A DNA stretch of 64,000 bases from Paraspadella gotoi (GCA_051294375.1 CM119269.1:1752537-1816536); one strand, 5' to 3'. Numbered from the stretch's first letter, positions 1 through 32,992 are shown. Notes: generated from the letters alone by a model not told the origin. Numbers and translations are program-made.

Positions 1-143
1 ATGATAATATGATCTTGTGGTGGACACAATCTCCATTTTTATAATCTCATCGACTGAAGAAACAATAAGAACCATTCATATTGTATTAAGATAGATACAA
101 ACTAATTGCAACTCCCGACCGGCCACTCCGGCTCTCCCACAAG

Positions 144-3100
144 GCCTCCTCGTCCCATGGATCGGCAACGTGCCTCTCTTCGCGACGCTCCGCTTCTTCG
201 TCGGCGCGTCTCTCGCTGGCGCCGGATCCGTCAAACTCTGGGTGACGGAGGTGACGCCGTTTCAGCGGCGGACGGGGGCGTTGGTGGCGATGGACGCGGC
301 GCTCTTCCTCTCCGTCGCTGGATTCTTCTTTATCGGCAGCGTCGTCTGCAACTGGAGGGCGTTCTGTCTCTGTCTCGCTTTGATCCCTTTTCTCTCGGTT
401 CCGTTTTCTTGTTCGACGGGTGAGTCAGTTCTGGTTGGGTCGTCCTTGAGATCTTCGTCATCGTTATTGTTCTCATTGTTGTCCAACTTTTTATTGTTTT
501 TGTTCGTTGTTGTTATCCGCCTCATGAATTACGTTTTTATCTTTCCCTATTCCGATCTTTTGGATGGCAATAGTCCTCGGCAGCAGGGATGTGGAGCCGA
601 CCTAATTTTGTCTCGGCAGTATATTTAATTAAAAATCGATTTGCTCTATTTTCCAGAATATATCTGTCGGGATAGTTGTCCTGATCTTTTTATCTTTGTC
701 AATATAAAATACCTATCTGTCAAATATTTTTTATCGTACATCATCGTTCGTTCTCCTTAATCACCCTGGGATAATTTTTTGGGGGGGTTCTACTAATTAA
801 GTTATTAAAAATTCTTAGTTACTAAAGGTTCAAAAGTTTATATGTGTAGTTAAAATTGGCAGAGGCAAAAAAAGACAAAAAAGGTGAAAACTACTAATTA
901 ACTTTGTGGGGAAAAAAATGATTCTACGGAAATGGAATAGTAAGATGAGAACCATAATGCGAAAAGGAAAAGGTACAGAATGAAAACTAATAAACTATGC
1001 TCAGTGGGTGCGGGGAGCAAATATACTACTGAGATTCTGTCACTGACATTAATCTTTATGAATACAAATTGACCTCTTTCCCAGTGAAAATTATTTAACT
1101 TTGTCATAAAAATATTTCAAAAAAGTTAACGTCACCTTGAATTTAAATTTAATCTCCGGGCAATTTCATAATCCTCGACTTTTATATCTTTTTATTTCGC
1201 GAACAACATAATTTCACTAGGATTCTATATTAACTCCTCCCCGTCCCGGGCGCCTTCCCGCCATTCCTACCCCCCCTATAGCGGAGAGCTTCAAGTGGCT
1301 GGAGAGTCGCGACGACTTCGGTCTTTATCCCCGAGTCCTCGCGCGGTTCGTCGAGGAAGACGACGACCCCTCCGTGGCCGTGCGGACACGGACCTTCAAG
1401 CTGAGCGAGAAGGATCGGCGGACGAGGACGTACAACGTCGAGGACGAGGACCTTCTGCTACAAAGGTCCGGGCGGGTGGATGGGTCCTGAGTTCGAATTC
1501 CCCTTTGGACCGGTTGTTTCGAAGTGGGACAGTTCCGGTGACTTTGCCTCCGATAAATAATTATTGAGTTGACATTAACTTCGCGGTTATCCGAGTCATG
1601 AGACTTGTCCCAGTTTGAACGGGAACGCCTTTTCTTTTCCTCCATTTTCTTTTGGCTGTAAGTGACACTTTTCATCGAATAATCAATTTGGTGTTCTGTC
1701 ATTTTCTTCTCGGGTAATTGTCATGGCCTTTACTTTCGTCTGATTTTCTCACTCACCCATGACAGTCGGAAACCTCAAAGTTTTACAATCACTACCAATC
1801 ATCCTCTTTTTTTTTGCTGAAACGCTTTTTTATTCAACGTGTTTCGGTTTATCTAGATGTTCCAGTTTTTGTTCCACCCCCAGTTTTTATTCCTCCCCTA
1901 GATCCAACCCTCAACGCCCGAAATGCGTGTCTGCTGTCCCCACGACCACGAATCACATGCGACGCTTGAACCGGGCCGCCGCCGACAAGGCGCCCCTAGC
2001 GGCGTTCGTTGTCGCGTCGGGCGTCGCGCAACTGACGGCGGCGACGGCGATTGCTCTTTTGTTAGGTAATAAAGAATAATGTTCTTGGGGCGGTGAGAGA
2101 TAGCCGATAGCCAAGGCGAAGCACAAATTGTTTATTTTGCTGTACGGGTTCGTTGACAGTAAAAGGCCGTTTTTGGACGGGCTGAGAAAGGTCTAGAGTC
2201 TATGGCCTAGTATCTAGTAAAGAAAAAGAAAAGGGAGAGTAATCTCCAAGAAAAGCAAAAGCTCAATCTACAAAAAGATCAAAGAAATGGTAAAACAAAA
2301 TGGCAAAGAAATAAATAGAAATGGCATCGCCATTTCTCTTCAATTTAAATTAGAAAAAAGGTAGTCTAGCTACACATTCACTATCGCCACCTGACTGAGT
2401 TGGCGTAGGAGTGAGAATTCTCTCTTCCCACCAAGCGGACTTGGGTTCTCGCCCCATTGATGCCAATGCTAGTAAGCGGGATGGGACGTCAAGCCCACCT
2501 TTAGTGGCGGACTACAGTCAGATCCGAACTAAAGTAGATCAATAAATTTATTTTTGACATATTAAAGACGGACCGATTTTAAATTCTTTTTATAGACATT
2601 GTCTTCTCATACAGAATAAAACTTAATGAAATTTTACCCGCAATAACGATACACACGAGGCAATATTTTACCGAGTAAAAAACCTTTGGGGGAAAAAAAG
2701 GTTACAGTGTGGCAGTTATTAATAACTGCCACAACAGGTAATTTTTTTATTCCAAATCGCAAAATCGTTGCTCACAAAAGGAAAAGCGGTTGTTTTTTTT
2801 TGCGCTGAAAAGAAGAAAAGCCGACGTCTTTTTTTCAATTAACGATCCTCTTAAGTTTCATCAGCCCCCCTCTGATTTCCTCTAATTTCAAAAATTCTTT
2901 ATTCAGGTTTGACGACTTTTAATTTATTTTCAGGTGAGAATTCTCAGAGTGAAAGAAGAAAAAAAAAACCAAAAGAGAAAGAAAGAGCAATCGACAAAAT
3001 TATTTCTTTTACTTTTTAATCTCGTCGCCCCACCGTCGCCCCGCCCCCATTACCCGACAGCCTCCTCCCACTTTCCGGTGCCGGACGAAGCCGTCCCCCC

Positions 3101-5242
3101 GGCGTCCGGCTTCTCGGAAGCGGCGATCGTCCGGCGGATTAGTCTTTACGTTTTGCCGGGACTTCTCTTTCTCTCCGCCCTCCTTCATTGGATCCTCGCG
3201 TTGAAAGGAGGAAGGATCAGACCGTTCGTGGCCAGCGCCGCTTTGCTCGGACTATTCTTGGGTAACGCATCGATTGGGTTTGTGTCAGTGTCACTGTCAA
3301 TGTCACTGTAAATGTCAATGTCAGTGTCAATGTCAGTGTCACTGTCACTGTCAATATCACTGTCGGTGATAAAGTTGTAAAAGGAGTTTTTAAATTGTTT
3401 CATTGTTGAATGTGGTCAAGAATTTTTAAATCGTCAAAAGTTATTTTATCATTTTGTTTTTTTATAAATAATTTATTAAATTATGAATTTTATTTTCTTT
3501 ACCCACAAACAAAATAATTAAATGGGAAAAAAAATTTATACCGTTAAACTTTTTTTTTCGTTGATTAAATTAAAATTTAAGATAGAAGAAAAAGTTTCAT
3601 TAATTAATGTCGCTTAAAATAATTATAACGCGACTACGTAATTTCTATTATCTTCCGGGGACATTTATTCGATCTTTTGTCTCTGTTTTTTTTTTTTTAC
3701 AAAGTCGTCGCTATTCAATCCGGCGTCGTTACTAATTGGACTAACGTTAGCCAATCAGACCAGTCCCACAAAAGTTTTATGTCATTTTTTTCCCTCTTGA
3801 CAGGAACAACTTTCGCTGTTAAATACTGTTATGATCTCAAATTAATCCGAGAACCCACAACGCTGCACATTGCGAAGGCTTTGGAACTGTTGACGACATT
3901 TTTCGCGGCGCTGAGTTTACAAAGCGCGAGAATGCTGGAACTGGAATCATTCCCGGGTGAATGAAAGGAATCAAAGTTTGAGCAAACAATGCCGGATCTG
4001 CCCACGGCGAGCGGCTGATCAGATAATTAATTAATTAATATTAATTTTTTTTTTATTATTTGCGTCGAAATCGTTTTCCACTTTGTCTCGCCTCTCAATC
4101 ACAAAGCAACAACCTTTGAGGTACTTGGCGTTCAAAGCTAACGGGGGACGGACGGACAGATGGATAGACATCAATTTTTTTTGGGATAATATATCGTAAT
4201 TCTATATTCTGAGATGATATAAATGACTTACCGACAAGATTTTGGTGTGGGACCGACCGACAGACAAAGTGAATTATAGAGCCGGAATCTGCAGTAAGCA
4301 GATCCGGCTAAAAAGCCAAATGAAAAAAAAAAAGAAATAAAAAAGAACAAAAATGATAAAAACTCTTTTATCTCTCAGTTCAATACCGCGGGGTCATATC
4401 CGGTTTAATCGGTTCTCTTCGGTGGATTTCTCTTCTCGGCGTTTTGTTTATCGTCCATTTCTCCATAGGAGACGAACTGGTAAAAGCAGACGTTGCCACA
4501 TACAAACATACATACATACATACATACATAGATACATACTCTCGGAGTGAATAATCTCGACTTTGAGAAAATCGTGATCGAAAGCCCCCCTGGGCCCTCC
4601 CTCAATTCAGGTCCGGTTGATTTCGGCGGTGGCGGTGGGCGTGATCGTCTTCGTCAGCGGCGCCTGTCATCTCCGCTTCGCCAACATGGCGCGGCGCCCT
4701 CTGCCGCAAGACGCTGACGATTTTCAGTTCGCGATGGACGCGTACGGACGCCAAACCGCGCGAGCCTTTCGTTGTTGTCCCCGGAGAGTAAGGGGCAGAT
4801 CCTGGAGTTGATTTGTTTGCGGTTACGGTACTTTTGATTTTTTTTTCCCCGCCAAATGTGTTTTGTTTATTGTTGAGCGGTTTTTTTTTATGTTCGTTTG
4901 TTTAACTATCTCTTTTTTTTTTCTTTTACTTTTTGCACAACGAATCTGCTCGAAAGTATCAGTCAAATATTGTCCCTTTTAATTTGCATGCCGTTTGTCT
5001 CGGAGATAGAGGAGTTCCGTTGAAACTTTAAACTAGTACAGAGACAAGCTTGTGCAAAAGCTTGGTCCCCGTCTATTTTTGACTATCGGCCACGCTCCAA
5101 TTTTCAGGACTTCTACGATTTTGAAGAAACGCGGCGAATGTCCCAAAAATCCGAAGAGGGTATCGTGAGATCGTGCACGCTGAAGCAGATGACTACTTCG
5201 AGCGCCAAGTTGCTGAAACACACCTCCTTCAATCGACTTTGA
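144..5242 (+). CDS. SLC22-like / sugar-porter MFS transporter, 5'-partial, about 8 exons
   Basis: GT-AG exons at about 144-419, 1281-1465, 1903-2065, 3061-3261, 3804-3956, 4379-4479, 4611-4787 and 5108-5242 join in frame. They give hydrophobic helices with divergent MFS motifs: LRFFVG..WVTEVTP..RR, NWR, AESFKWL (PESPRWL-like), KGGRIRP, LESFPVQYRG (ELFPT.R-like) and RRPLPQD. The last exon is less certain. Confidence 0.75.
2398..2465 (+). pseudogene. Degenerate tRNA-Gly-like sequence or SINE head (intronic)
   Basis: TGGCGTAGGAG (A-box-like), AGAATTCTC..TTCCCAC (resembles the tRNA-Gly anticodon arm) and GGGTTCTCGCC (B-box-like). The stems pair poorly. Confidence 0.3.
3282..3366. repeat. (GTCA(A/G/C)T)n hexamer microsatellite
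   Basis: Tandem gtcagt/gtcact/gtcaat units in an intron. Confidence 0.85.
4143..4313 (+). mobile_element. DINE-1/Helentron-like non-autonomous element remnant
   Basis: GACG/GACA microsatellite, then GACAGACAAAGTG, then a 3' stem-loop AGCCGGAATCTGC-agtaa-GCAGATCCGGCT (4280-4309) followed by an A-run. A related sequence lies at about 52733-52890. Confidence 0.5.
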
Positions 5243-5978
5243 CAATATTTTAACAAGATTCAATTACGTAAAAGTTCTTGTTTAAACGATTTATTATTTA
5301 ACAACTTTTCGTGCAAAACCCATAACCCTTTGTATCAATGTATTGAATTCGGGGCTTTTTTCCAATTGCTTTTCATTGTTGCCTTAGAATAAACACCCTA
5401 CTTGCCTGGCTCTCTCCGTTTAATAGGAGCATGGAAACGTTTTTGGTTAAGTAAACAGCAGTTTCATATCGCTCCAGCTTATGTGGCCCTACTAGGCTCT
5501 TACCCAATGCTCCGTAGCTAGTATATTGCTCTCTAGGTTTCTTCGGTGATAAAAGAAAATGAGTTGTAATATTTTTAAAATGCTTCTTTATTAGTGAATA
5601 AATACTGCGTGATCATCGATTTCGTAAGGTGGTTCAATGCTTGTTGGTTTGATTTCCATAAAAAACGAGTGACAACAAAATTCGAGAGTAAATAATTGAC
5701 ACAACATGTGGCTAAATTAAGAGTAAAACGTGACCAACGGTGATTGTAAAATGTAACAAAGATAACGAGTTGTTTTCTCGACAAGAGCTGGACCATGGAT
5801 AACCGGTGGTCCAATCTTGATCGGCCTCACAATACGTTGACGCATCGTGAGGCAAATTCGCAACAAAGGAAAGAAAAAAAAAATAAATACAAAATGTTAC
5901 AGATTTGTTTTAGTTTTCTGATATATTTTGTTTTCATGATTAGATTTTGTTCCGGTTTGATTTTGGCCGCATCATCTT

Positions 5979-5984
5979 TTTATT
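5979..5984 (-). terminator. Polyadenylation signal AATAAA of the myosin gene
   Basis: Minus-strand AATAAA about 30 nt after the TGA at 6013. Confidence 0.6.
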
Positions 5985-6012
5985 CTTCAAGATTGTATTG
6001 AGATGAATTGAA

Positions 6013-7244
6013 TCACTTCTTTCCCTTCTTAAGCTTGTAGGTGACGTAGGAGTGAAGCTTGTAATGCATCTTGACCAAAGCTCCAACGTTCTCAGGATCC
6101 ACCTGAAAAAATTAGATTTCGTGTAGACTTGATGTTGCGACTGTTTAAAAACTTATTTGCATTGGAAATTTGACTAAAAAAACCAAGTATTATTCCGAAT
6201 TCGATTTTTAATGTCTTACTTGAAATCCTTCTTTCTCCAGGTAAGAAGCTCTTGCAAGGGAAGTAGTGATGTCGGATTGAATGGTCTGTCAAAAAAAAAA
6301 TAAATGAAAGAATTTGAAAAAATTAAAAGTATATCTTAAAATAGTATTAATCATAGTTCGACTTATGACCAAAGAAAATTCACTGCAACACGGTTTTCTT
6401 AGATCAAGTAACTATGGTGAGTAAGCCGTATAAAAAGTCTACAATTGCAGAATTAAGTGCCATTTCAAGATAATTATTACGTGAACGATTTGCAACTAGA
6501 CTTGGTCCTTTACTTTTGCTGCACTCATCTTTCTCAAATAAAAAATCGTCCGTTACTTGATCTAGTCAAACCTTTTTTTTAAATAAAACACTTCAATTTA
6601 AAAAAAAAAATAGTTTGAATTTTTTTAAGCTTTTTTTACCTAACATTTAAAGACGGAGAAAAGCTTGGTGATTCGAGGTGGTAAATTTAACAGCCTGAAA
6701 TAATTTTAATTTTTTTTTTTAATGTCTAAAATTTTTACTGATTAAAGCGATAAAACAGATTTCATTTTTTATTAATAGATGCAAAATTCTTTGGGTCCTA
6801 TGCCTGGTTCTTACCAAACTGTATGAAACCTGTTTTATCTTTCATTATATTTTTACTAAGAGAGGGGAATTAAAAATAGCAAAGACAAGTTAAAAAAAAG
6901 AAAAAACGTAATTCGGTCATATTTTTCCGATTTGGAAACTCGTTCTTTATTCCACATCTTGGCACTACTCTCTATTTTTTAAAGCCATCCTCAAATTAAA
7001 CCCAATTTTAATTTTTTAAAGTTTAGCTAAGGTTTTCATTGTGCAGCAAGAGTAAGAACCAAGCATTAATTTATTTTCCGAACAACCTTGATAATTTATT
7101 CCGTTCGTCAAAAACAATTACGGCCTACTCATCAATATACCAATATATATTTTTGAAAATTAAAACGATGAATTATACAGAAAAAACTGAATTGATTGTT
7201 TTTAAATTACGTGGAAAAATAGAGCAAGAAAGGGGGAAAAGGGT

Positions 7245-7301
<57 letters not shown>

Positions 7302-10300
7302 AGAGAAGAGAGAGAGAGAGAGTGGAAAGACACGGAGCCAGGCAGTGAAAGAGAGACAGAGAAGATAAAGGAGCGAAAAAGACAAGAGACAGTGATTCCA
7401 AATCATGTGCGAAACTCACGGAAATGGTGGACCACATCTCCCTCTTCTCGACGAGAAGAGCGGCGGCCTTCTTGTCGAGGGCGGCGATGGAGTCGGCCAC
7501 GACGGTGATGTTGCCCTTCATCGCGGTCTTCTCGGCCTCGAGAGAGATCGCCTTCGTCTTCAGCTTTTGGTAGCCTGAGGAGAGAGAACGAGAAAGTTCG
7601 TTCCAATTGTTTACTTTGTTTTTTTTAGATTCTAGTTTAATAAATAATCATGCAGTTGTTCTTTGATTTTTCTTTCTTTCTTTCCTTTCTATTTTACAGA
7701 AATAGTATATCGAAGCAGTAAACAAAGCAAACATCATTAGTATTAGTTGCGCCAACACCAGTTAAAAAATACAACGTGAACGACTTCATTCTGGCTCCGC
7801 AAAAAGAGAAAACAAAGTCCGACGACAACAAAAACAAAAATAAAAACAACCTGACGGCGTAGCAACAGCAACTTCCTCCTCAAACTGACACCAGTGCTGT
7901 CAACGGCGTTTTGACTCACCTCCGGAAGTGGCCTCAACCTTGGCCTTGGTCGCGGAGAGCTCCCTGGAGACCTCTTCCTTGGTCTTCGTGAGCGAAGCCT
8001 TCGTGTTCTGCATCTGAGACTTGAGGCTGGACCTGTGAATCGAAGAGGAAGAGGAAGAGTGGAGGGACGGAAAAAAGTGGGGCTTCAGAGATGCGATCCA
8101 AGTTTTGATTCGTTATATTTAAAAATAAAAGCTGAATATAATTTAATAACCTTTAATCATCCTCGTTCAATTTCTAAAAGATACGATAAGAGATAAAAAA
8201 AAAAAGAAAACATCATTTCAAACTAGTGACTTTCGATAACAATATAGCCTAACTACGACCAGATATGTAGGTGCAAGGTATGCTTTTCTCTTCTAATGAA
8301 AATTTTCACGATAAAACCTTACCTCTCGTTGTCGATGGCGGAAGTCACGCTGGCCAGGTAAGAGGCGGCGGACTCTGCGGCGGCCTCAGCGGCTCTGATC
8401 TCATCCGCCTGCGTGCCGGCGTACTCGCCGAGGAAGGACATCTCCTCGCGGATGGCGGCGGCCTTGGCGCGAGAGGCGTCGTTGGCGGCCTTGAAGGATA
8501 CGGAATACGAAAGGTGGCGATGAGAACCTGCGGCTTCTTTGGTTCGGAAGTGGAGTCGAATCTCCTTTCGACACTCACCTGGGCGGCTTCGCGCTCGAGA
8601 GCAGCCTGGGCGAGGATCGCCTGGAACTTGGCCAGGCCCTCGGCCATCTGCTTGCGGCGCTCCTCCTCGGCCAGCTTCTTCTTGAGGACGGTGAGCTCGC
8701 TCTTGATCATGGTGTAGAACTGGTACCAGGCCCAATCCTGGAGAGAAGGGAATGGATGATTAAAATAATTTTAAAAATTTAATTTGAAAGGCTCTTTCCA
8801 CAAATCATCCAACCCTGCAGTTGTAGTAGAGGCGAATGTTCCTCTGGATCGAAGAGATCGACTTCTTCTCGGATATCTTCTCCTGGTACTTGACGTGGAC
8901 GAGCACGCGGCGACACTGGCACTGCATCTTGACAAAGATCTTCGCCAAGGCGCCCTCGCGGATCTCCTCCAGTTGGGATAACATACCGGCGCGGAACATG
9001 ATCTGAAAAGTGAGGTTAAGTGATCGTTAACATATGAAAGACTAACTTGAAGTAAAAACGACAGGCTGGAAAGCATTTTCGGTACTTACCTTGGTCTTGC
9101 CGCAACGGAAAGAGTCGGGGTCCATGCCGGACTGAACCAGAGACTTCTGGGCGCAGTTCTTGGGGTCGTCCTTCATGTCCGAGAAGATCTTGGGAGCGAT
9201 GATGGAGTAGCGCACCATGAAATCGGCGTGGGGGACCTGGAGGAATGAATGCAGAACATATTTGAAATATGAAGAGGTCGACATGCTACATCATCGTCAA
9301 CATCATCGTCTTCGTATAACTGAACCTTGTTGGGCAGACCCAACATGCAAATACGGATGCCCTCCAGCACGCCGTTGCAGTTGAGCTGATGCATGACGAG
9401 GGGAGCGTCGATGTAGCCAGACTTTTTAATCTCGTTGGGGATAATGCAGCGCACAAAGTGAGGGTGAGTCGAGTGCAAGTTGTGCATCAACTTGTGCAGT
9501 GACTCCCTGATGTTGATAAAAAGAAATGGAACTTAATAAAATATCTTTGTGCAATGAGCTATGTGATAATCGCTCAGTAATCTACTAATCATCGAATGAG
9601 ACTTAAACAAAACGTTTGCGGTTACCTGTGGGCAGCGGAGATGGTCATCATGGAAGCACCCTTCTTCTTAGTGCCATCATCCTTCTCTTGGAAGACAAGA
9701 GCGACGACAGGGTTTCCGGCTGAACCCATCATTCCGGTCACGGCCTCGTTGACGGGATCCTTGTTCTTAAAGAGCCAGCCGGTGACATTGTAGCCGACGG
9801 TTCCGGCGTAGTGATGGATCTCGAAGTGAGCCTCGGGCTTACCCTTCTTGGCAGGCTTGGGCTTACCGAAGGACTTGTGCTTGCCCAAGTGCTTGCCCAT
9901 CATCTTCTCCAGGTAGGTCTTGTCGGTGGCCTTGGGCACGATGCACTCCTCCTCCAACATGGCGAGGATGCCCATCTTCTTCTCGATGAGCTCGATGGTG
10001 ACGACCAAGTCCATGCCGAAGTCGACGAAGTTCCACTGGATGCCCTCACGCTTGTACTCTTCCTGCTCCTCAACGAACATGTGGTGGTTAAAGAACTGCT
10101 GCAGGCGCTCGTTGGTGTAGTTGATAAGCAGCTGCTCCAGCACGTTGAGCTCAAAGATCTCGAAACCTTTGGAAGTAGAGAATAATGACGTTGTGGCGGT
10201 ATATTCACACCACCTCATGTTCATGTACAGATTAGAACAATTCTTTTTATGAATTTATATTTAGTAGTAGTAGTAAATCAGTTTGTCAATGTGATCTGGT

Positions 10301-13256
10301 GACTCACCGGCGATGTCCAAGACACCAATAAAGTTCTTCCTCGGGTTGGGGGTGTCGAGAGAATCGTTGACCAAGCGGACGATCCAGTCGAACATCCTGG
10401 CAAAGAGGGACTTGGACGTGGCGGAGACCGAGAAGGAGACCTTGAAGTTTTGGAGTGACCAATTTGTTAAGTAAATCAAGTTCAAATGTTTAGATATACG
10501 TACATGTAACGAAGCATGTAAAAAAAGAAACGGCTTACCTGGTCCAAGTTCTGACCCTTCTTGACGAAATCCTTGCCGACCTTCAACTTGGGCTTCATGA
10601 ATGTGTCGACGAACCAATCGGCCTCGATGCAGAGCAGATCGGCCGCCTGAAAACAAAAAAAATTTCGATCGCATTTGTCGAAAATAATTCTCGGTTCAAT
10701 AATTTCGCTTCGTAACGAACCCTGGAGATGAACTCCATGCCATCGGGTTCGGCCTGCTCCTCGCGTCCCTTCATCTTCCACTTCTGGTTTCCCATGTAGC
10801 AAATGGCGATGGTGCCCTGTTTGTTTGTGGGGAAGTGGTAGGGGCGTTTTTAGATTCGAGATGGATTGGATTTAAGATTAAACTGACTCATGAAGAAAAG
10901 TGTGGACTGTGGAGGCGTGGAAGTATCATCCACAATCACCTTGAAGAGACCGTCCTTGTCGTCCTGAGTGAAACCGAGAATGTCGAAGGCCTCGTCGGTG
11001 GCCTGCATCTCAGCCTTGTCGTCCATCTTGTCGACGGTCAAGACACCCTGGAATTCAATAATTCAATTGTAGACACTGATTTGTCTCTTTCACGTAGGTA
11101 AATGAAAAATATATTTTTTAATATATAATCATACTTATACCTAATAAAACTTTGGTGGTTTCGATCTATGCATTATTTGATTTAGTATTAAGCTCTATTA
11201 TATCAATAAATACTTATATTAAAAAAATTAATATTAATATTAAAAATTTTATTTTTAAACATAATGTTTTTATACACTTTTTTTTATTTCATAATATTCG
11301 AAATAAGCTCATTTCATTTGAAAAACGCCTATTTTTTATATAAATATATTATTTTTAATTTTTAAATAAAAAAGCGGTAAAAGTTACTGAAACTAGAAAA
11401 GGTTTTGGCGACCTATTCATTTTCCAACATGGCAGCTGCCTTAACTCACCTGGTTGATGAAGTAGTAGTCTCCGGGGTGAGGCTTGTCTCCCAACAGACA
11501 CATGCCATGGTACTTGGGGTAAGCGTCGGTCATGATCTGGTAGAAGATGTGGTAGTTCCTCTCGATCTCCAGCTGGAAGGTGATGCGAGACTTCTCCAGC
11601 AGGTAAGTCTCGATATCGGCGGCGGCGATCTTGGACGTCGGACCGAAGTGGATACGGATAAACTTTCCCTGAAGAGGCGCAAAATGAGTATTTTTTACAA
11701 CACTTAAGAGTGGAAAAAAAAAAAAACCCCGTAAAACAAGAGTCTGAAACTCAATAACAGAAAAGCAGGAAATAAAATAACTACTAAATACTCACGAATC
11801 GGGAGGAGTTGTTGTTCCTGACGGTCTTGGCGTTACCGTAGGACTCCAGAGGAGTGTTGGCTCTGGACAATCTGGTCCTCAAGGGATCCCATCTTGCCCG
11901 ATGTGTCGGCCTTGGACTTGGCGGCCTGAAGATGATAGGGATCGTTTAGAATGAGAAAGGACACAATGCAAATGGAAGACATTTAAAATTAAAAAAAATC
12001 AAAGGAACCAACCTTGGGGTCGGCGCAGTTTAGAGCGTAGTACTGCAGCACCTTCTTTGTGTTCTCCGTCTTTCCGGCACCAGACTCGCCGGTAATGAGA
12101 GATGACTGGTTCTTGCATTCTGCAGAATAAAAGGCGTAGTGATTATTGGTAAGTCGCCTCCACATTATCGTTAATAGTTCGGATTAGTTATCATACAATT
12201 ATCAAGTGTAGCAATATTGGTATCATTAATGAAGTTAAAGCTCACTCTACGGTTTCACTCTTTGGTTACTGGTTAATTTTAGAACTAGTAATCATTTAAT
12301 TAGATATTTTAATCAAAACTTATTCGCCCTTCGCGTGACTCACCCATCTCCAGAAGCTGCAGCGCTCCGTCAGCGACGGCGTAGAGATGCGGCGGGGCGT
12401 CGGTCCTCCTCCTGTTCCTGTAATGAGCTCTCATGACGGGCGTGTACACCATGAGCCACTTGTAGGGGTTGATACAGATACAGAAAAGACCCGAATAGGT
12501 GTAGATCTGAAGGCACTGGTAACGGCTCTTCAAGTTGTGCAAGACGCAGGCTCTGGAAAGAAAAAGAAAGACAGAAATTAAAGATACGTGGATAAAAAAT
12601 AAGAAAATATTAAAAGAAAGATAAAAAAGGAAACATTCAATTCTCCAATATTTAAAAAAATGAATATACTTGTTGAGAATGGACAAGTTCGACATATCTT
12701 CCTCCTTCTCGAACTTTGGTGGGTTGCAATCCAGAATCTCGGCCTTGGGCAGAGTGCTCGACTGGGGGAAGTAAGTGTGTTGAAAGAGGGAAGAGAAAGA
12801 GGGGAAAAGTTAGCGGTTGAATATATTAAATATAATTATACTCAAAATTTAAAAGGCCAAATAAATAGAATAAAATTTTAACATTTTTTTAAAAGTTTAA
12901 TCAATTAATAAGACGTCTTCTCGGCTAATCTGTCGGCGGATGAAAAGTAAACTCACCCCCTTGGCGGTTTGAACTTCGAACTTATCCCCGCCGCCGCCAG
13001 TGATTTTGCCCCTGACGTAGACTTCGTCGGGGTCGGAGATCCAGCACTCCGTCTGAATTTATAATGAATTATAATGATTTATAAACGAATTAGGCTATAA
13101 TTAATGATAGGTGAAAAAAAAAGAAAAAGTAAATAAAGGATGATCCGAGGAAACCTTGGGATCGAAGGGGACCGATCTTTCGGCCATCAGTTGTTCGCCC
13201 GGAGACTGGAGCCAGATCCAGTCCGGATGTTTCGGGGACAACCTCTCCTCAGGCAT
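6013..13256 (-). CDS. Class II (striated-muscle-type) myosin heavy chain with a short ~210-aa tail; about 20 coding exons, about 1045 aa; one apparent +1 frameshift near 11862
   Basis: ATG at 13256 ([13 protein letters not shown]). Motifs: [30 protein letters not shown]-loop GESGAGKT, switch I NNNSSRF, switch [46 protein letters not shown], two IQ-like segments and DWAWYQ. The last exon 6102-6013 ends KLKKGKK*. Confidence 0.9.
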
Positions 13257-13819: not shown

Positions 13820-13826
13820 TTTTATA
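13820..13826 (-). promoter_or_regulatory. TATA box of the myosin gene
   Basis: Minus-strand TATAAAA in a GC-rich context. It is followed by a short non-coding exon with a donor near 13769 and a second UTR exon at about 13491-13532. Confidence 0.65.
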
Positions 13827-15913: not shown

Positions 15914-16410
15914 CTACTGATCGCCGTCGGAGAATGGTTGTTCTTTGCGAACTCCCCCCATATCCTGCAACGCCAATCCCCAAAGAAACTGAAAAATGGT
16001 GTCGTAAGATTGACGTGCCACGCCCATTCCTTTTTGAACGTCCTTCATCATCACCTGAAAGTTAAGAGCAGTCAGGAGGGAAGGGGTTATCAACGGTATT
16101 CATGTATCAACACTATCAACATATCATATCATATCAACATCAACACTAATCAATATTCATGTATGTCTTCGCTTCAAAGTACCTGTTTGGCAATCAGAGG
16201 GTCACGCTCCCGCTGCTCCAAATTTTGCACGGAGCTGGAACCGCTTCCGGGTTTGTACCGATCGACGGAGTTAGTTCGCGGCAGTGCGTTCGGATTCCAG
16301 AGGTAAGGATCCTGGAAATTTTCCTCGTCGGAGACGGGCGCGGATAAGGCCGACCACGTCAGTACGCTCGTCAACAAGATCGTGGCGAAAACAACGTATT
16401 TTAATGCCAT
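15914..16410 (-). CDS. Small secreted orphan protein, 122 aa, 2 exons
   Basis: Exon 16410-16183 starts with a signal peptide (MALKYVVFATILLTSVLTWSALSA). A phase-0 GT-AG intron leads to exon 16054-15914 (VMMKDVQKGMGVARQSYDTIFQFLWGLALQDMGGVRKEQPFSDGDQ*). Confidence 0.7.
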
Positions 16411-16939
16411 TTTTAAAAAAGAATAAACTTTTGTAGTGTTTAGCGTCACGCTGATTGAAGCGGGTTTAAAATGATTCAAGAAGAAATTGATTCGATATTA
16501 AAGTATTCCTGAATGAGCAAATTTTTCTTTGGTGAACGGAATCACGGGGCGAAGGTCTTCTGCTGAGGTCGCAAATATTTTTTTTTTCCTAAATAATCAT
16601 TTCTCTCTGTAGCAAATGTGGAAAGGTTACTTTACATAATGGAAAAGAAATGAAAAAAAATTAAAATTAGTAGCCCAGTATGTCATTTACATAACTGTTT
16701 ACTTCTCTACAAAGATAAAAGTCTTTTATTACGTAAAATTACCAAATTCAACTATATAAACAAATAATCGATGACACGGTTGCCTTAATCCCATACTCAA
16801 AGTTCTTTCGTTATATTTTTCTCCCACGCCAATCGGTAACATTCGTTTGAAATTTTGACGTTGCATGGAATCAGCCAACATTTGGAAATGCGTGGCACTT
16901 CAATTTGCTTTCCCTGAATTGGAACGCAAATTTTGTTTT

Positions 16940-17605: not shown

Positions 17606-19497
17606 TCATTCAATCGAAGTCTTGAAAGTATTTTGAAAAAAAAAAATATTTAGCTCTCTAAAATAATAGAATGGATGACAGTTGTAAAGTGTACATTCTA
17701 GATCATGGCAACAATCAATACATTGCTTATTACAAAAACGATTACTTATGGTAACATCGTCAGCATTTAGCCTTACTCCTTTGTGAGCGTTGGGCATTTT
17801 AGCAACGAGTTCAATAAATTGACGCGGTAAGACTCCCTCCTGTGTATTTGTCTCCTTCATCAGCGCGGCGACCCAATTTTTGTTCTCTAACACATCGCTC
17901 CATTTCAAGCAATCGTTTCCGTCCCTGAGGGCGTAATGGAAAATATTAACTGTCACAGTATAACGTTTGAGTGCAACAGTTAAATATAGACAAAGATGAC
18001 AAAAATAAATTTTAATTGCTAATACTTTGGCTGTGGCAGTAGAGACCAGAGAATTTGAGAAAATTGATTATGAGACTAAATTTTATAAAAAAATTATGTA
18101 AAGTGATATATAAACGAGACTGTGAGAGAGTCTTGATTGAAAGCATGCAGAGGACTGCTATGTCATTATCTTGTAAGAGTGATGGAGGCCTTAAATCACC
18201 AAAGCCTGTTCCAAAGTCAAGGGCAAGATAGCTTATTTATAAATGAATGGATATTTTTATATTGGTTGTACAATTCATAAAATTCAGCTCCTTGTATTTT
18301 GATGCTAGTGCGGAGTACAATAAGTATTCCCGATCTAATACTTAAGGGAGTGGTCTTTTTCATACAATTAAACTTCTTTGAATATTTTCCACTTCATTGA
18401 TAGGGAAGCCAGGAACTCTGGGAGTGGAATAAACGAGACTGTGAGAGAGTCTTGATTGAAAGCTTGCAGGGACCTGCTATGTCATTATCTTGTAAGAGTG
18501 ATGGAGGCCTTAAACCACCAAAGCCTGTCCAAAGTCAAGGGGCAAGATAGCTTATTTATTAAATGAATGGATAATTTTATATTGGTTGTACACAATTTCA
18601 TAAAATTCAGCTCCTTGTATTTTGATGCTAGTGGAGTACAATAAGTATTCCCCCGATCTAATCTTAAGGGAGTGGTCCTTTTCATACAATTGAAACATTC
18701 TTTGAAATATTTTCCACTTCATTGATAGGGAAGCCAGGTACTCTGGAGTGAATAACGAGACTGTGAGAGAGTCTTGATTGAAAGCTTGCAGGACCTGCTA
18801 TGTCATTATTTGTAAGAGAGGAGGCTTAAACCACCAAAGCTGTCCAAAGTCAGGGGCAAGATAGCTTATTTATTAAATGAATGGATAATTTTTATATTGG
18901 TTGTACCAATTTCATATATATTTTTAAAAATATTAAATCTGTGTTATAGTTTATATGATTTGTTACTGTTTACGACTACATACTACATACTACTACATAT
19001 TGGGTAATTTTGTTTTTGTTTTAATTGGCCGTCAAAAGGTAATATTGATATATTCTATAATTATGAATTTTAATTTTATATTTTAAATAGAAAGGTAATT
19101 ATTTTTATTTATTCATTTATTTTTTATTTTCCTAAGTGGGAAATTCATGGATGTAAATTTTAAACTATAATACTCACATGTCCATTGTGTTGTAACCGCG
19201 ATATGGACACGGGTTTTGAGGATCAAGGAGCCCGGTGGAGCCAAACCAGTAGCAAATATTGCTCTCAGTCACGTTGAAAGTGTATTGAGGAGGGTCAATG
19301 TCAGATTCCATGACAAACCTAGCGACAGTTTGACATCTCGTAAATATGTTGTTGATTACTTTAAAAACAAGCACAAATCAGACTGTCACTGTCACTATGT
19401 CAAAATTTTGAACATTGTATACAGAACCAGACCAGGGGATTCCGGTAAGAGCGACTGCTATGACCACAACCAAAGTGACGCGAAGTACGTCGGCCAT
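17606..19497 (-). CDS. Secreted Cys-containing orphan protein, at least 3 exons, 3' end uncertain
   Basis: Signal peptide MADVLRVTLVVVIAVALTG (19497-19428), exon 19358-19178 (INNIFTRCQ...NICYWFG...PCPYRG) and a phase-compatible exon from 17924 (DGNDCLKW...). It either splices at 17777 or reads on through FCNKQCIDCCHDLECTLYNC to the stop at 17606. Confidence 0.55.
18111..18917 (+). repeat. Tandem array of about 2.5 copies of a ~325-bp unclassified repeat
   Basis: Units begin AACGAGACTGTGAGAGAGTC at about 18112, 18431 and 18754. The array ends at TTGGTTGTACCAATTTCATA. Confidence 0.9.
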
Positions 19498-19776
19498 GAT
19501 ACTTAAGACCAGGAGGCCTTCAGTGTCGCAAGATCTTGAAAATATCAATCAATGACTGGTTATTATATTTATTCTTAGACGATTAACATAAAACCTTCGA
19601 AGTTTAATTGCAATTTATCTTGAAATACATACTAACAGTTCTACAGTTTACTTTCTTCAGTTTCCAGAATCTTGAATTAATTGCCTTTTAGTTTTAGACT
19701 AAAAAATTGTTAAGTATATGATTTACCTACAATAAATAGAGGAGGCAATTACAAATATAAATGAATATGACCTTAC

Positions 19777-21364: not shown

Positions 21365-22633
21365 CTCTGAAGTATCGGTGATATTAATTGATAAGGAAAA
21401 CTTGAATAACACCCTTCTAAAGAAAAGAAATTAACTTGCTATCTTAGTCAATACACTAACTTCAGACGAAGGTGTAAAAATAACTAAAAAGTGACTGAAA
21501 ATCACTCGTCATTAGTGGTAAAATGATAAAAAAATATTGGACTTAAATGGCACCTTATGTTTTTGAGCAGGTTTTTAAAATTGTTAGTTTCAAGATTCCA
21601 GTTTTCAAATTTTCTGACGCTTTTATCTTCTAACATTACTGTGACTGGCATAATTGATTGAAAATTAAAAAAAATCGATTTGTTCATAAATAATGTATTT
21701 TTCATTCAGTTAAAATCCTTAGCAACATCCGCCAAGACAGGCAAACAAATTTAATGAAAGCCTACATTTTATTTTAGTCGTACTCGGTAGTTATGGAAAA
21801 AAAACCGGACATGTCTAATTACATCTAGGCAGAAAAAAAAGCAGTACTCAAATGTCCAGCAAAGATTGACATGATAATGATTCGAACATCTGAATATAGT
21901 TCTTCCATAAACGACGTGTGCGTTTATATTCATATCCATATGCGCTGGATATACGAAATATGGAAAGAACGCTTAATTTAAGTCGCCATAATGAATGAAT
22001 GAATGAATGAATGAATGAACGTAAAAAATACACGAGAAAAAAATGTGAAAAAATTTAGGTACTGATCAAGTCTTTAAAAAGTTGTCTATAAGATGAGGAT
22101 GCTCAATTAAAAACCAAATTCGACAGTGCATAGATCAAAATATACATAGTAGTTTTAAGCAATATATTTTAAAGTGATTAATGAAGAAAATACAATCAAA
22201 TTACACAAGTTATTTTACCTATCATCGATACAGGGCTGCTTGACTTTGTCAAGCACGGAATGGCACTATTTTTATACCGATCACATTCGCAATGTACAAG
22301 TCCGCCAGAATGACTAGACCATGATGGGTGAGACAAAGCTGGAAGTATGCCAATATATTTCATATATTTAATCTTTCATGACAAACATAGTTAAGAAAAT
22401 ATCTAATATTAATTAGCCAAAATGAAAAGGAGCACTGAGAAGGAGATAACTTTAGGAAAACAGAAGGGAATGAAAATATAAATGAAAATAAAAGTATAAC
22501 TAATTAAAATAATTTTAAAAAAAATTACATACGTACAAATCTCTAAAGAAAAGTTTTTTGAGGGGCGGAATTTTTTTGGCACACAACCCACCGCGAACTA
22601 AGAAACTAGTAATCTTTTGGCAATATTTCATAA

Positions 22634-23514
22634 CTAAGAACGACCTCCTTTGGAATGCGCAATGAGCCACTGCAAGGTGATATCGATATTGTCTTTCTCT
22701 TTACACGATATAGAGTAGCAGCAGATTTCTCGATCTTGAATTGCGCTGAGGTTCATTTTTTCGATGAGCTCCTTCTCATCAAGCGCTCCGAGCAAATCTC
22801 TTTTGTTGCCGAGAACTGTGAATAAAATATAAATACATATATACGAATAAAAGAAGGATGCCGAAATAAGTTTTTTTTTAATTTAAAATATTTTCGTTTT
22901 AAAACCTCACCCAAAACAGGGATTCCCGCCAGCTGCGGTTTGTCCAATAAATTATGCAATTCGTTCCTTGAAGCTTCCAATTTTTCATGGTCGGCTAAAA
23001 ATTATAGGATATTTTTATGAGAAAGTGAGAAACTCGACAAAAGTAGAGAGAGAATTGTAATCGTCCTTTAACATTTATCCCGTTTGCCTTGAATTAACAT
23101 TAATTAGCATTAACAGAGACATTTCTGCCGACTACAATGAAAAAAAAAATTTAATTTGCATGCTTTCAGCAAGATTCTCTTTTTGAGTTAATTAAACAAT
23201 TATGAAAGAATAATCTCACCCGCGTCGACCATGTAAACAATGCAATTGACTCCTCGACAGTAACGTTCCCACATTGACCGAAAGCGAGGCTGTCCACCGA
23301 TGTCCCACAACTTGATTGTAACGTTGCCCTTTGTGATCTTTCGCATGTTGAACCCCACAGTAGGAATCATGTCTTCGCTGAACTGTCCCGAGGCGATAAC
23401 GTTGACGAATGTGGTCTTGCCAGAATACTGTAATCCCACTAGGGTAAGTTCCATTTCCTCTTTCCAGAAAAGGCTCTTGAACCAATCCAAAATGCGGGTA
23501 AGAAAGGAAAACAT
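22634..23514 (-). CDS. ARL8: ADP-ribosylation factor-like GTPase 8, 3 exons
   Basis: Exons 23514-23220, 22994-22911 and 22815-22634 give [64 protein letters not shown] and [20 protein letters not shown]. Confidence 0.97.
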
Positions 23515-24693
23515 GGTTTTCGCCCAGAGTCGTTCGAAAAAAAAAAGTAATCTGAAAGGCATTCAATTCACAAATCACGCAGGGAAGTAGAACGATAAAA
23601 TTTAAGGCTAAATTATAATTATCCAAAAATGGTTTAAATTAAGGCTTTTTAAATTCGGGAAGTACAAGTATTCCTAGGAAAGCTGATCCGAGATAGGAGG
23701 GGCGTCGATTCCTCCGTGACGGCAGTGATTCAGACTCCTTAGTCTTGACCAGGGCGCTGAGGCGGCTGCGTTAGAGCAGTAGCAAGCCTCGGATCGCATA
23801 GAGCGATCGGAACTGGAATTTAGCGTTTTTTGCATGCATTATAAATAAAGTCAGGAAAATTTTCATTTCATCGCCATATTAGCTGTTATTTTTTAAAACA
23901 GGAAAGAAATTATACGTGATTCAAAACGTCAATAAAATGATTATTAACAACGGCGTCTTCTGCAGCCGACGCTGCAGCTACTGAAAAACAGGAGCCGCGG
24001 CAGCGCGAGTCGGTCGCCATGGAAACAGCATCAGGATAAGAACGCGTTGATCTTGCCGCGGCGGAGCAGCGTTGCCGCAGGATTGCAGCAGAGTTGACGC
24101 GGAGATGACACAGCGCCAATTGCCTCTCTCTCACTCCCTCTGTTTTGTGATCCATGTTTACCGTTCTTCACTAATTTCCCCGGCGCCCCGATTCTCCAAT
24201 TCCACTCTTCCGTTCCATTTTCCTTCGTTCACCTTATCTGTTGCAAAATTGCAATGATTACTGAAATTTGGATGGTGACATATTTTGGTGCCGCAGGTCT
24301 GAACTTGCCACTACCTTACGCTTAGCAATTTCATGCTTTAAATGATTTCTTTGCTTTTAAATTAAATGTAATGATATAGTTGAATTCAAACACGGAATAT
24401 GAGCTGATAAAAACCATTAAATAACCACTTTATGCATTGTCATGGGTGAACCGCCGATTGACTTTGTCCAAAAACTAAAAAAAAGTGAAGTCCGTCCCGT
24501 GGCCCACGTTTCTCAGCTTGGGACCTCTTTTCGAGACCCATCTGGTTCTGGCGATCGCGTCAACACTGAGGTCGCCGTTGCCGACCAATCTGCTTCGCTC
24601 ATTGCTGAGAACTTGTCCCGGGTTAGTTGACGAATGAAGACGAACGATGGGATTAATTTGACGTGATTGTACAATTTTTTTGTCTCGCAGATA

Positions 24694-25932
24694 ATGTCTC
24701 CTGGTAACGACACTGAAGAATCTCCGTCGTCTGGATCAACCCAATCGGCGGACGCCTCGGAGGTCGGTCAGGGAGACGCTGATCGTCACTCCGTCCAAGA
24801 AAATCGCGACTCAGGGGCTCCGTCGTGGCAACCGCGACTATTTTCCGATCATCAGTCACCATCCCAAGTTTCTCCCGACGAAGAACTCGGCGCCGTAGGG
24901 GGAATCGAAGACAGTCCAAGAACGCCGGGTGGGGCAGCGTCGCCTCGGGTGCCTCTTCTTAACTTCCCCATCCCGGATTCGTCTAAGCTCAAGGAGCCTC
25001 TGCGGCCGCTTTTCGAGAACGACAGGCCGCTGTCGCCGCCGGTGCCTGTAGCCGAGGTCGAGGACCAGGTAACCAACTAGTCTTAGTAGGCGTCTCTTCG
25101 TCCTCTATTAGCGAATCTGAAAGTTTAATTAGTATAATTTTGTTTTTTTGGTTAAAGGCTGGATTTATTATCCAAAGTTTTTTCGAAGAGAGATGGCGTC
25201 AAGAGAGCGGAGACGCCCCCAGCGAACTTGTCGTCCCTCAGTCTTCTTCCGCGTGGTCTTCAAACGCGGAGAGGAACCCTGGTGGGGATTCGGTTACGGA
25301 GAGAAGGGCCGACTTTCTTTCCCCGGAACACGCGGTCGACGGTCGTCGTTCCCAAGGAGACAAGGAGGTGGACCATAAGTAAGACACTACAGTCTCTTCT
25401 TAACAACATATTAAACATTAAACATGAACCAAAATTTTAAGCATCCGCGCCGTCTCAGCCAAGTTAAACTTAATCGCCCAAGAGATCGACCAAAGGTATT
25501 CTGTCGAGTTCGACGACATGATTGATGTTCTCAAAATCAATGGATCAACTGCCTATGAAGCCTTCGCTCAAGTCGCCAAACAGTAAGACAGGCATTGTTG
25601 TCGATAATTCGATCCTTTTTTATCTAAATCATTTTATTCAAAGGATGCTAACCGGCGGAATTTCTTGGTCCCGAGTGATTGCGCTGCTGGTGTTCGGGTA
25701 CCGAATGGCTCGGCGATTTGTCGACCTGGCTATTCCCAACTTTGTCCAGCGGATCGTCGGCTACCTGGTGAAGTTCGTGTGTCGCCACGTGGCAAAGTGG
25801 ATTGCAGATCGCGGCGGTTGGCTCGCCATTCTTCAACTCGAAGAGGGAATCTCTTGGACAGGATTCTTCGGTATCATGTCCCTCGGGTTCGGTATCCTGG
25901 CTGCCGTAACTTACGTCAGGAACAGATTATAA
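24694..25932 (+). CDS. Multidomain Bcl-2 family protein, Bak-like, 4 exons
   Basis: Exons at about 24694-25068, 25157-25378, 25442-25582 and 25644-25932. BH3-like LNLIAQEIDQRY..EFDDM, TAYEAFAQVA, BH1-like GGISWSRVIALLVFGY, BH2 WIADRGGW and a C-terminal TM helix. Confidence 0.85.
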
Positions 25933-30303: not shown

Positions 30304-32992
30304 ATGCCAATCGGAAGTCCGGTTTGCGAGGATGACCCCTCCGAAACAAACGTCAATGCAAACAGCAACAACAGGGGGCACCCTAACCTTATCTACTCTA
30401 GCTACGGCGTCCAAGGTTGTCCGGCGCCTATGAAACCGGGACCCGGAGACTGCGCAGTTCTCGTCGGCGCTCAAAATTTGATGGCCAATTACATTCCTGT
30501 CTTCAATCCCAAGGTTTTTTCTCCTTTAATTATTTTAAGCGATTAGACTAATAGAAACGATTTTAAAGAATTGAAAAAGTGTATTATTAAGGGAGCAATC
30601 GTTGACATGTACGGCCCGCCTCATGGGGGACTCGACAAAGAAAACTACGCCAAGAAGATTGAGGGCTGGAAGTCCAGCGTGGAGCAGCGGGAGCGGGTCG
30701 GTGGAATTGGGGCGGGGAAGTCCACGTCCCGCGCGCCGGAGCCGGTCGCCATTGAAGCGCCCATGGCGCCGCCACAGCCAAATTGGAACCGAAACAGAAA
30801 TAACAGGAGTCGCAGCTACGATGAGACGAGGAAGCAGAAGAACCGATTCAAAGACAGAAAAATATTCAGGGATTTAAACAAGAATCAAAACCACAGGGTG
30901 AACTGAATCGACTCTTGCACCTTTAACTCGGTTACCGATTTGACGCAAAGCCCCATTTTTCAACTTTTTCACCCGAAGAACGAATTCGATGACAACTTCA
31001 ACCAAAACATCGAACCTCTCGGCGAATGCCTCGACTACATCGACGACGAATACAAGGAAGCAAGGGAGTACGTCAGACTTTACCATCAGAGCCTCACCAA
31101 GATTCACGATACGCTCAAAGTGAGACCCATTCTTTGACAATTTGATTTCGACGTTTTTATATCGTTATTTGTTCTACCTCAGTCGACTCTTAAGCCGGGA
31201 CCCCCAATAGGCAGCCGATGGGAGGCCTTCAAGAATGCCTTCAAAGCCGGAAATATCGCTCGATGTCCGGAGTTGCAGCTTTCCACCGATTTCGATGACT
31301 ACGAAAAGGTGCCAGTTGCAACTTTATGTTGTTTAATCTTGTAAGTATATTGTGAGTTTTCTGAAGAAAACATGTTTTTTTTTTCAATTTTTAAGGTATT
31401 TCAATGTATGAATCACTGTTATCACGCTATTTTCCTTATCACCAACAGGTTATGGTTGCGCCCGGTTCACCGCTTGACGATGCTGTGACGGACATGAGCC
31501 AAGCCTATCGTTATATATGTTCCGCCAAGGAGGCATTGGAGCATGACATCAAGACGCAATTTCTCGAACCGTTGCACGTTTTCATCGAGAAAGTGAGTTT
31601 TATATTATTGAAGCACCAAAGTGAACGAAGGCTGGAGTGGTGTTTTGTTGGTCGTAACCGCTACTTACTGATTGCGCAGGAGTGGAAAAACGTCGTTAAC
31701 CACGACAAGAACGTTATGCATCTGGCTTCTAAGATTCAGAAGGCCAAGTCAGAGGGACGCGATCAGGCGGCCATTGCCGATTACATGGATATCTTCAACC
31801 GTGAGCGAGAGAAAACCCTCTATCTCTTCAATTTCATCCTAAACAGCGATTACAACCAGATTAACAAATTCATCGACTTGGTCAACTGTTACATCGATTA
31901 TCACAAGTGAGGCTTTGTTGCAGATAACAATTGAATTCAAATTGAATCATGATCTAAGAAAATATGCGCTTGTGCAGTATATATATTTATTTATATTTAT
32001 TAGTTTATTCAGAAGTTTTTTGCTCTTTTAGGGAAAACTTAACTCTTCTCGAGGAGCTGTTGAAGACACTCCGTCGCCGCGCCAAAGCGGCGAAACCTGA
32101 CCATAATACGCGCGCGTCGCGTCCAATCGACGGAACTGGGGGATGCATGGGCACGTGTTACAGACCCTGCGCTCTTGCGCCAGGACTAGTCACTGATGTG
32201 ACTGGCGATTCCAAAGGTAAGTTTGTGAGTGGGAAAAAGAAATTTTTACTTTGTCAGTTTGTATTAAGATTTGAATAAATAAATATAATATCCAGCTGTC
32301 GAAAAAGAGTTTGAACGTATTTTCGGGGCGCCAATGCCTCCCAGAGATTGCGGAGAACACGGCTTTGGAATGACTTGCGCTAAGGATAAGGAGGTGTTGA
32401 ATTGTGAAAAATACTCTCATAATCTCGTTCGTCGTTATGACTGACGAATCAAAATTTTTTCCGCTCGGTGTTGTTGTCCATAGCAACCGGAAACGGCGCT
32501 ACCCCTGGAAGCTAAGCAGAGCTGTGAGGCGGACGGCAGCGCCGCCTTCCTAGAATACATGGAGAAGCGCATCAAGACGAGACCTTACGGGTTTGTTAAA
32601 GAGCCGTACGAAGCCAAGATGCCCGGGGAGATGTCACTTTACTCGGGAGAGATTGTTTACCTCAAGGTGAGCTTCTTTTGAGATTGACGAGAATTGTAGA
32701 TATGATGAGCGGAAAACCCCGCTCATTGTGGATATACGTATATTTTTTTCATGACACTTGTAAAATGAAAATTGTTTAATGGTACTATTACAAATTTTAA
32801 TAACTAGTAAGGCGCAATCAGATATATTTACAATTCTTTAATGCGAATCGTTAGTTATACTTATAGCATTAATAAATTATTTTATCGAATAAGGGCAAGC
32901 CTGGATTCGACTTGTACTGTGGGGAAAAGGAAGACGGAACCAAGGGCAAATTTCCGCAGAAGTGTCTGGACATCATCGTGGATATCTGTTAG
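30304..32992 (+). CDS. Divergent endophilin-like BAR + SH3 protein, about 10 exons
   Basis: Helical BAR-like region (PGSPLDDAV..MSQAY..AKEALEHDIKTQFLEPLHVFIEKEWKNV; QINKFIDLVNCYIDYHKE..LLEEL) and a C-terminal SH3-like region PYEAKMPGEMSLYSGEIVYLK...GTKGKFPQKCLDIIVDIC*. The start codon is uncertain. Confidence 0.75.

Follow-up and report, generated by a model that had tools for sequence, protein, structure and literature searches.

A long rod, a proline at the neck-tail junction and assembly into filaments are treated as defining for myosin II. A gene on the minus strand of a 64,000-nucleotide stretch of the Paraspadella gotoi genome (GCA_051294375.1 CM119269.1:1752537-1816536; hereafter the window) raises the question of whether a muscle-type motor of this class can be encoded without them. 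The original prediction for this gene, made from the DNA alone, was a natural myosin II resembling heavy meromyosin (HMM), lacking the light meromyosin (LMM) part of the rod and its assembly competence domain. That description has held up on the strength of the splicing of the gene, its homologues, two full mRNA contigs and the lack of a Myosin_tail_1 domain, and we regard it as practically certain that the short-tailed protein is real.

The coordinate model runs from an ATG at 13256 to a stop at 6013–6015 in 21 coding exons and specifies a protein of 1068 aa; the introns are short, and all 20 of those in the long isoform have GT-AG ends. Exons 1–14 (9090–13256), recognized through the gene model, splice joints, motifs and ranking against the Protein Data Bank (PDB), specify an N-terminal SH3-like domain and the motor domain (aa 1–756). 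Motor exon 6 carries an extra base at 11862 which shifts the frame; since it is missing from both of the sequencing runs examined, which come from two studies, it is likely an assembly error. Exon 15 (8814–9002, aa 757–819) supplies the end of the converter and two IQ-type light-chain sites, based upon alignment to myosin II necks and a Pfam IQ match [E 0.0045, under the curated cut-off]. Exon 16 (8579–8737; model, alignment and joints) encodes the WxW hook, Ser832, a Lys/Glu/Arg-rich segment (aa ~838–850) and the start of the heptad tail. The helical tail, Ala-rich in exon 17 (8323–8489), continues through exon 18 (7920–8032), both resting on joints and model, and exon 19 (7420–7574; joints) carries the distal conserved heptad segment (aa 966–1017).

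The donor at 7420 is the switch for two alternative C-termini. In the long isoform it is joined to a 66-nt exon 20 (6220–6285; joints 6285–7420 and 6100–6218 in both runs) specifying 22 aa at the end of the long helix, followed by the last coding exon (6013–6102; joints, model and the structure prediction of a close homologue) with a short loop, a predicted 24-residue basic helix and the stop. Alternatively, the donor is joined to a 55-nt cassette exon (6640–6694), whose in-frame stop ends the protein after 15 further residues; the resulting isoform of 1032 aa lacks the Lys-rich end. Evidence for the cassette comprises joints 6693–7419 (run X1) and 6285–6640 (runs X1 and X2) and the matching layout of an mRNA contig. 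The 3' untranslated region (UTR) occupies 5572–6012. An AATAAA had been reported shortly after the stop and is indeed found at 5984–5979, but contigs continue to 5572 (X1) and 5617 (X2), which fits a second AATAAA at 5592–5587 that is likely the main poly(A) signal. A TATA-like box at 13820–13826, also on the minus strand and upstream of predicted short non-coding exons, may act in the promoter.

The transcript evidence consists of assembled contigs from runs X1 and X2, which were taken to be RNA-like by guess only; they contain 0.36 and 0.33 of the sampled words, and were used for spliced joints, not for depth. Introns are spliced out of the contigs at canonical ends (15 joints listed of 35), and there are five joints at the 3' end of the gene (7573–7919, 6285–7420, 6693–7419, 6285–6640 and 6100–6218). 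In both runs the 7420 donor is joined to 6285 or 6694 only; no splice from it to distant rod exons was seen, and among seven loose contig ends shown, of nine, none lies at 7420. The first N gap in the window occurs at 46134, so the region of the myosin gene is gap-free, and the joints of both runs lead to the short exons rather than pointing to a misassembly between about 6100 and 7400. At the joints 6285, 6640 and 6693 the shorter side measures only 20–31 letters, and at the last intron the sides measure 38 and 68, so that the terminal joints need outside support, which is supplied by homologues. One mRNA contig (L001) contains the C-terminus of the long isoform, a stop and 479 nt of 3' UTR. 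In a second (L002) the cassette exon and its stop precede both downstream exons, which lie within a 3' UTR of 958 nt. Since the latter layout matches that of the window gene, this alternative splicing has been conserved, and other assemblies contain both of the gene's C-termini as well. The last junction is 73 nt downstream of the cassette stop, which could trigger nonsense-mediated decay. The peptide added by the cassette is nevertheless kept in different assemblies, a sign that the protein isoform is real. Motor exons are also covered by variant contigs, suggesting the existence of further paralogues in these runs.

As had been predicted, no recognizable rod exons lie downstream: three true rod queries gave no tblastn match at E≤1 anywhere in the window. 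A fourth query slice, which itself contained motor sequence, matched motor exons only.

To which class does the motor belong? Judged by sequence, to striated-muscle myosin II. The P-loop, switch I and switch II are intact. Exon 12 of the window gene scored 212–233 bits on 49 striated myosin II structures and 169–175 bits on smooth and non-muscle myosins (60 PDB entries shown), and a full homologue ranked the entries in the same order. The two IQ sites and WxW hook, present by alignment to myosin II necks, are described as a myosin II feature in PMC11335295, which, like the other papers cited here for background, is quoted from excerpts. The SH3-like N-terminus (PF02736) was found in five full-length short homologues, including the nearest, P0019, these rather than the joined window protein having been scanned. 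In a head tree of 36 rows a single clade (SH-aLRT 100, stem 1.41) unites the window gene with 12 short forms and 3 full-rod sisters, and this clade is sister to rotifers (support 98); the tree stems from an IQ-TREE quick search of class II rows only, without an unconventional outgroup. Ranking, tree and neck agree with the muscle-type class II motor originally proposed, and the PDB ranking and Pfam scans place it with striated class II rather than with the short-tailed classes I, VI and X.

The rod of the full-rod sister is nearest to that of Seison (65%), followed by bdelloids and molluscs (60–64%), and in a FastTree tree of rods it falls with the rotifers (0.999), the head stem being much longer than the rod stem (0.66 vs 0.35). 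The short-tailed clade is likely an arrow worm (chaetognath) gene family, as would suit a gnathiferan that is marine and not a rotifer, a placement which carries a long-branch caveat and comes from a tree without a named chaetognath sequence. An arthropod or chordate origin was ruled out, as both the head and rod trees group with rotifers. Two changes run through the lineage (window 9326–10166, exons 12–13): the relay Cys is replaced by Leu, and RKGF after SH1 by MLGL. Both are common to all ten full-rod sequences of the same lineage and occur in none of 113 other full-rod myosins (top counts), and since the full-rod sisters have them too they are traits of the lineage.

A protein search with exon 12 gave at least 120 matches; 99 among the matches listed bear the lineage motor signature, and the 120 listed include 34 homologues of 990–1100 aa with a short tail, one full rod and one partial subfragment 2 (S2). 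The close matches derive from JGI and merc assemblies (marine metatranscriptomes). A tail search yielded 39 matches, and a tail profile run against 1.84 billion representatives yielded 68, mostly known short tails plus a divergent fifth class. Five long matches to the profile (P0368, P0393, P0406, P0407 and P0412) were discarded as coiled-coil noise: none has a myosin head and four have bacterial or unrelated names. There are at least five short-tailed classes (A–E) beside one full-rod sister. The tails are 29–39% identical between classes and 61% within class A; class E (P0371, P0426 and P0429) is Glu/Gln-rich rather than Ala-rich, yet aligns without gaps to the window tail over 204 residues at 31% identity. 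Twelve of the 68 tail matches continue with Val-Ser or Val-Leu directly after the distal motif, and the intron at 7420 appears to be common to classes A, B and C.

The motors are 86–92% identical across tail classes and to the full-rod sister, the necks 46–85% and the tails 24–39%, and full-rod contigs show two different first-IQ versions on one rod. Near-identical motors with diverged necks and tails may reflect gene conversion, alternative exons or assembly chimeras; many of the 105–110 short sequences counted below are near-copies or possible assembly chimeras. Trees mix the tail classes and put full-rod forms inside short forms. Chimeras or gene conversion could cause this mixing, hence we claim no order of events.

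What distinguishes the short forms is the region beyond the hook. The junction reads MIKSEL, as had been noted, with Ser832 at the proline position (8699–8701). This proline, called invariant in PMC11335295, is missing from all 105 short-tailed sequences (Gly in 86, Ser in 16, Ala in 3), whereas every one of 123 full-rod sequences has it. Beyond this position the tail measures 236 aa in the long isoform (200–236 for the gene as a whole), and the protein ends 236 aa past the hook, some 860 residues short of a full rod. The original prediction was thus right about the short tail and missing rod, and its figure of about 210 aa fell short since the 66-nt exon (6285–6220) had been overlooked; the cassette exon and its second C-terminus had likewise escaped notice. 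None of six short forms scanned matched Myosin_tail_1 (PF01576) in Pfam at E≤1, vs E 6.9e-155 for the full-rod sister, and comparison of the tail with the rod gave no significant match to any region; a C-terminal assembly competence domain is missing.

The tail is Ala-rich and heptad-like, as first described. Its Ala content is 18% in the window gene (median 24.5% over 105 short tails; 6–14% in four S2 regions), and heptad periodicity was detected. Over 196 residues the net charge is near neutral, −8 to +6 in eight short tails, vs −12 to −18 in six S2 regions. A Lys/Glu/Arg-rich stretch without core residues, at tail positions 6–17, lies where the tail is conserved best (52% from class to class); the Ala-rich mid-tail is 24–27% identical between classes and the distal heptad segment, which ends in Trp in most of them, 32–36%. 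Hook and distal motif lie 193 residues apart in 98 of 110 sequences (A 50/53, B 31/38, C 10/12, D 5/5, E 2/2), and the remaining 12 have a shorter interval. With a helix rise of 0.1485 nm per residue this spacer would span about 29–30 nm. The stagger of myosins in thick filaments is 98 residues, or 14.3 nm, and it is speculative whether the closeness of 193 to twice 98 has any meaning.

AlphaFold modelled the tail of a close homologue as one helix of 201 residues, separated by a loop from a second helix of 24 (mean pLDDT 86, pTM 0.34), so the end described earlier as a non-coiled cap is instead predicted to be helical. A full-length model was unusable (mean pLDDT 48.6), and prediction of a tail homodimer scored 0.00 in two runs, to which we attach no weight for or against a dimer. 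A fold search with the tail model gave no match at E≤0.001, and the tail profile matched eight PDB sequences at E≤1, none of them a myosin (best E 0.0017). In an Atlas feature search the tail reached 0.84 at best, with Myosin_tail_1 clusters at 0.76–0.79, under the lead threshold. An internal duplication of the tail was considered and dropped as unconvincing (best self-shifts 92, 53 and 99, z 2.2–3.0).

How might such a molecule work? Two chains would dimerise through the coiled coil of ~30 nm into a two-headed motor, which the heptads and the continuous helix of the model make probable. The spacer of fixed length would set the reach of the heads from a scaffold, and the switchable C-terminal helices would dock the motor on that scaffold, most simply the thick-filament backbone of the full-rod sister. 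We infer docking because the tail is of fixed length, its distal segment is better conserved and its C-termini are swapped by splicing. A role in muscle also seems probable since the motor is about 90% identical to that of the full-rod myosin and turns up in many independent assemblies. If the protein is real, two-headed and at work in muscle, docking on the thick-filament lattice is somewhat favoured; taken as a whole, a two-headed, HMM-like accessory muscle motor docked by its distal tail on the lattice of the full-rod myosin is the reading we tentatively prefer, at a little less than an even chance. Self-assembly into thick filaments by the usual route would not be expected because the LMM and the assembly competence domain, the latter essential for thick filaments (PMC11708916), are missing. 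The folded-back OFF state would presumably be weak because both the proline and an acidic S2 have been lost; in the model of this state an arginine-rich mesa contacts the acidic proximal S2 (PMC6582153).

Several observations weigh against this picture. The mid-tail core is largely Ala/Gly/Ser with gaps of 11–24 residues between strongly hydrophobic columns, which leaves room for a weak coiled coil or one with other than two strands. From class to class the C-terminal ends vary greatly. As to a possible descent of the tail from S2, a register on S2 (residues 102–186) ranked first in two comparisons by small margins (z 3.6–4.1, runner-up 3.2–3.8), was lost both with a class-balanced profile and with the divergent class E, and had an insignificant hidden Markov model score. 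The near-copies and possible chimeras among the 105–110 sequences mean that the counts overstate independence, and the clade has a long stem in a head tree obtained by quick search only. The site in muscle and the docking partner are postulated, and contig depth gives no expression ranking.

Four other explanations have to be weighed. One is an artefact, namely misassembly, truncation or pseudogenisation of an ordinary myosin II that has its rod exons in some other place, which would suit the frameshift at 11862, the confinement of the rod search to the 64 kb window and RNA evidence made up of contigs with short joint sides. This reading is largely refuted: the extra base is missing from both runs, the joints reach short exons only, both C-termini recur with stop and UTR in many independent assemblies, and the full-rod myosin has a second IQ and junction of its own; we give it almost no credence. 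Rather unlikely, though the strongest competitor, is an antiparallel pairing of distal segments into a four-headed bipolar unit of ~50–60 nm, which would slide or cross-link actin without a thick filament, possibly in secondary muscle. The constant spacer length, the distal segment that is better conserved than the mid-tail and mostly Trp-ended, and the near-neutral, Ala-rich composition would all fit, as would the unique striation of chaetognath secondary muscle (PMC5054868, PMC4254178). No structural support for such a unit was obtained. Secondary muscle is, moreover, a small part of the chaetognath body wall, which fits poorly with the frequent full-length assembly of the transcripts.

The suggestion, made originally, that the motor is tethered to a membrane or cargo by its Lys-rich C-terminus fares less well. 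The last 22 residues carry a net charge of +7 in the long class A isoform and +5 in the long class C ends, and splicing toggles this end, as one would expect of a targeting signal. The end is missing, however, from 73 of 105 short tails (37 of class B, 33 of the cassette isoform and 3 of class D), the window gene's own second isoform among the forms without it; lipid- or cargo-binding Pfam domains were found in none of the six proteins scanned, the motor is about 90% identical to a sarcomere-type sister, and the end itself, which is predicted to form a helix, conserves Tyr/His/Leu positions, aromatic and aliphatic residues equally suited to protein binding. We consider such a two-headed tethered motor improbable. 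Slightly less probable still is an unanchored two- or single-headed actin binder serving in muscle as brake, cross-linker or thin-filament activator. No anchor has been identified, the loss of OFF-state determinants would free the heads and the mid-tail core is weak, all of which it would accommodate; but without an anchor neither the strict length nor the conservation of the distal segment is easily accounted for, and a free active myosin would waste ATP.

The docked accessory motor could form part of a wider arrangement, which we think doubtful at present: chaetognaths may have split muscle myosin between one filament-building rod myosin and a family of rodless motors of fixed length, which would provide much of the complement of working heads and would dock on the thick filament or pair among themselves into tiny bipolar units. 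If true, such a split would amount to a sarcomere design not known from other animals and would give the unusual muscle of chaetognaths a molecular basis. Whatever the arrangement, one lineage has kept a muscle motor almost unchanged and swapped the rod for a fixed-length spacer in at least five paralogue classes. The proteins are named candidates for the unusual striated muscle of arrow worms, which the literature searched describes by ultrastructure and not through its myosins, and as natural counterparts of engineered HMM they offer a test of the need for the proline and acidic S2 in the OFF state.

Other features of the window may be mentioned briefly. A convergent multi-exon gene on the plus strand (~100–5242) has hydrophobic stretches and can end in frame at 5242, as proposed, via a splice from 4787 to 5108, one contig reading through the donor to a stop at 4811; its designation as a transporter was not borne out, none of four open reading frames (ORFs) having a Pfam match. 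Pfam scans identified an Arf-family GTPase (22600–23562, minus strand), which we take to be Arl8-like, and, on the plus strand, a Bcl-2 family gene (25522–25932), a BAR-domain gene (30500–32300) and a C2H2 zinc-finger gene (38760–41770), presumably AEBP2-like. Upstream of the myosin gene two small groups of minus-strand ORFs (16174–16497 and 19174–19548) start with signal-peptide-like hydrophobic stretches; the former gave no Pfam match, and the scan at the latter covered the opposite strand only. A unit of ~320 bp is tandemly repeated upstream of the gene (18110–18916) and dispersed elsewhere in the window (34842–35105 and 57365–57700) with 79–95% identity. Long, intron-poor ORFs of 262, 364 and 199 aa at 46591–49012 (plus strand) look transposon-derived, the 364-aa ORF having no Pfam match.

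A short-tailed muscle myosin II variant has apparently not been described before. No prior description was found in the literature searched, which comprised titles and abstract openings; older chaetognath muscle papers, in which a myosin of ~115 kDa might appear, fall outside it. The word "myosin" is absent from the main text and three supplements of the chaetognath genome paper (PMC12460157), of which one further spreadsheet may list these genes. "Chaetognath", "short tail" and "truncated" do not occur in the main text of PMC5583752, and PMC11078758 and PMC13193452 held nothing relevant. In a Spadella single-nucleus preprint (10.1101/2025.01.31.635879) "myosin heavy chain" and "myosin-7" mark two muscle clusters, the tails being undescribed in the excerpts available, and the unusual primary and secondary muscles of chaetognaths are described in PMC4254178 and PMC5054868.

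Compared with known systems, the protein resembles striated myosin II (squid 3i5f, scallop 1dfk/1b7t, human MYH7), which gave the best PDB scores, in its SH3-like N-terminus, motor, two IQ sites and WxW hook, and its motor is 89–92% identical to that of the full-rod myosin of its own lineage and about 60% to that of Seison. Unlike striated myosin II it has no junction proline, Myosin_tail_1, LMM or assembly competence domain, and its near-neutral, Ala-rich tail measures only 200–236 aa. The definition of a conventional myosin II in PMC3942036 requires the tail domain PF01576; because this is missing, the product, whose motor descends from striated myosin II, is best called a short-tailed myosin derived from class II rather than a conventional myosin II. 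Like myosins VI, X and I, with their single-alpha-helix or basic tails, it has a short Lys/Glu/Arg-rich segment after the lever and, in some isoforms, a basic end; unlike these classes it ranks striated class II first by sequence and shows no MYO6_lever, TH1 or cargo-binding domain in Pfam. An Atlas search with P0019 did rank a myosin VI cluster first (0.94), an identity for which the sequence ranking gives no support.

A further parallel is HMM. HMM, including the recombinant 25-heptad HMM of beta-cardiac myosin, has two heads on ~25–28 heptads of coiled coil (PMC6582153), and two heads are predicted here as in the 25-heptad constructs (PMC6582153, PMC9242648). HMM, however, is a proteolytic or engineered product that keeps the proline and acidic proximal S2, both of which favour the folded-back state, whereas the short form is gene-encoded, with a diverged tail and C-terminal helices of its own. 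If it docks as proposed, it would be like Myosin-18A, a relative of myosin II that is enzymatically inactive and joins filaments built by another myosin (PMC11335295); unlike Myosin-18A, the short form keeps its catalytic motifs and has no rod. Myosin-18A possesses a long coiled coil. The muscle myosin derivatives myorod/catchin of molluscs and the Drosophila myosin rod protein keep the rod while losing the head. The protein described here is also half a molecule, but one that is specified by a separate gene and that keeps the head and loses the rod.

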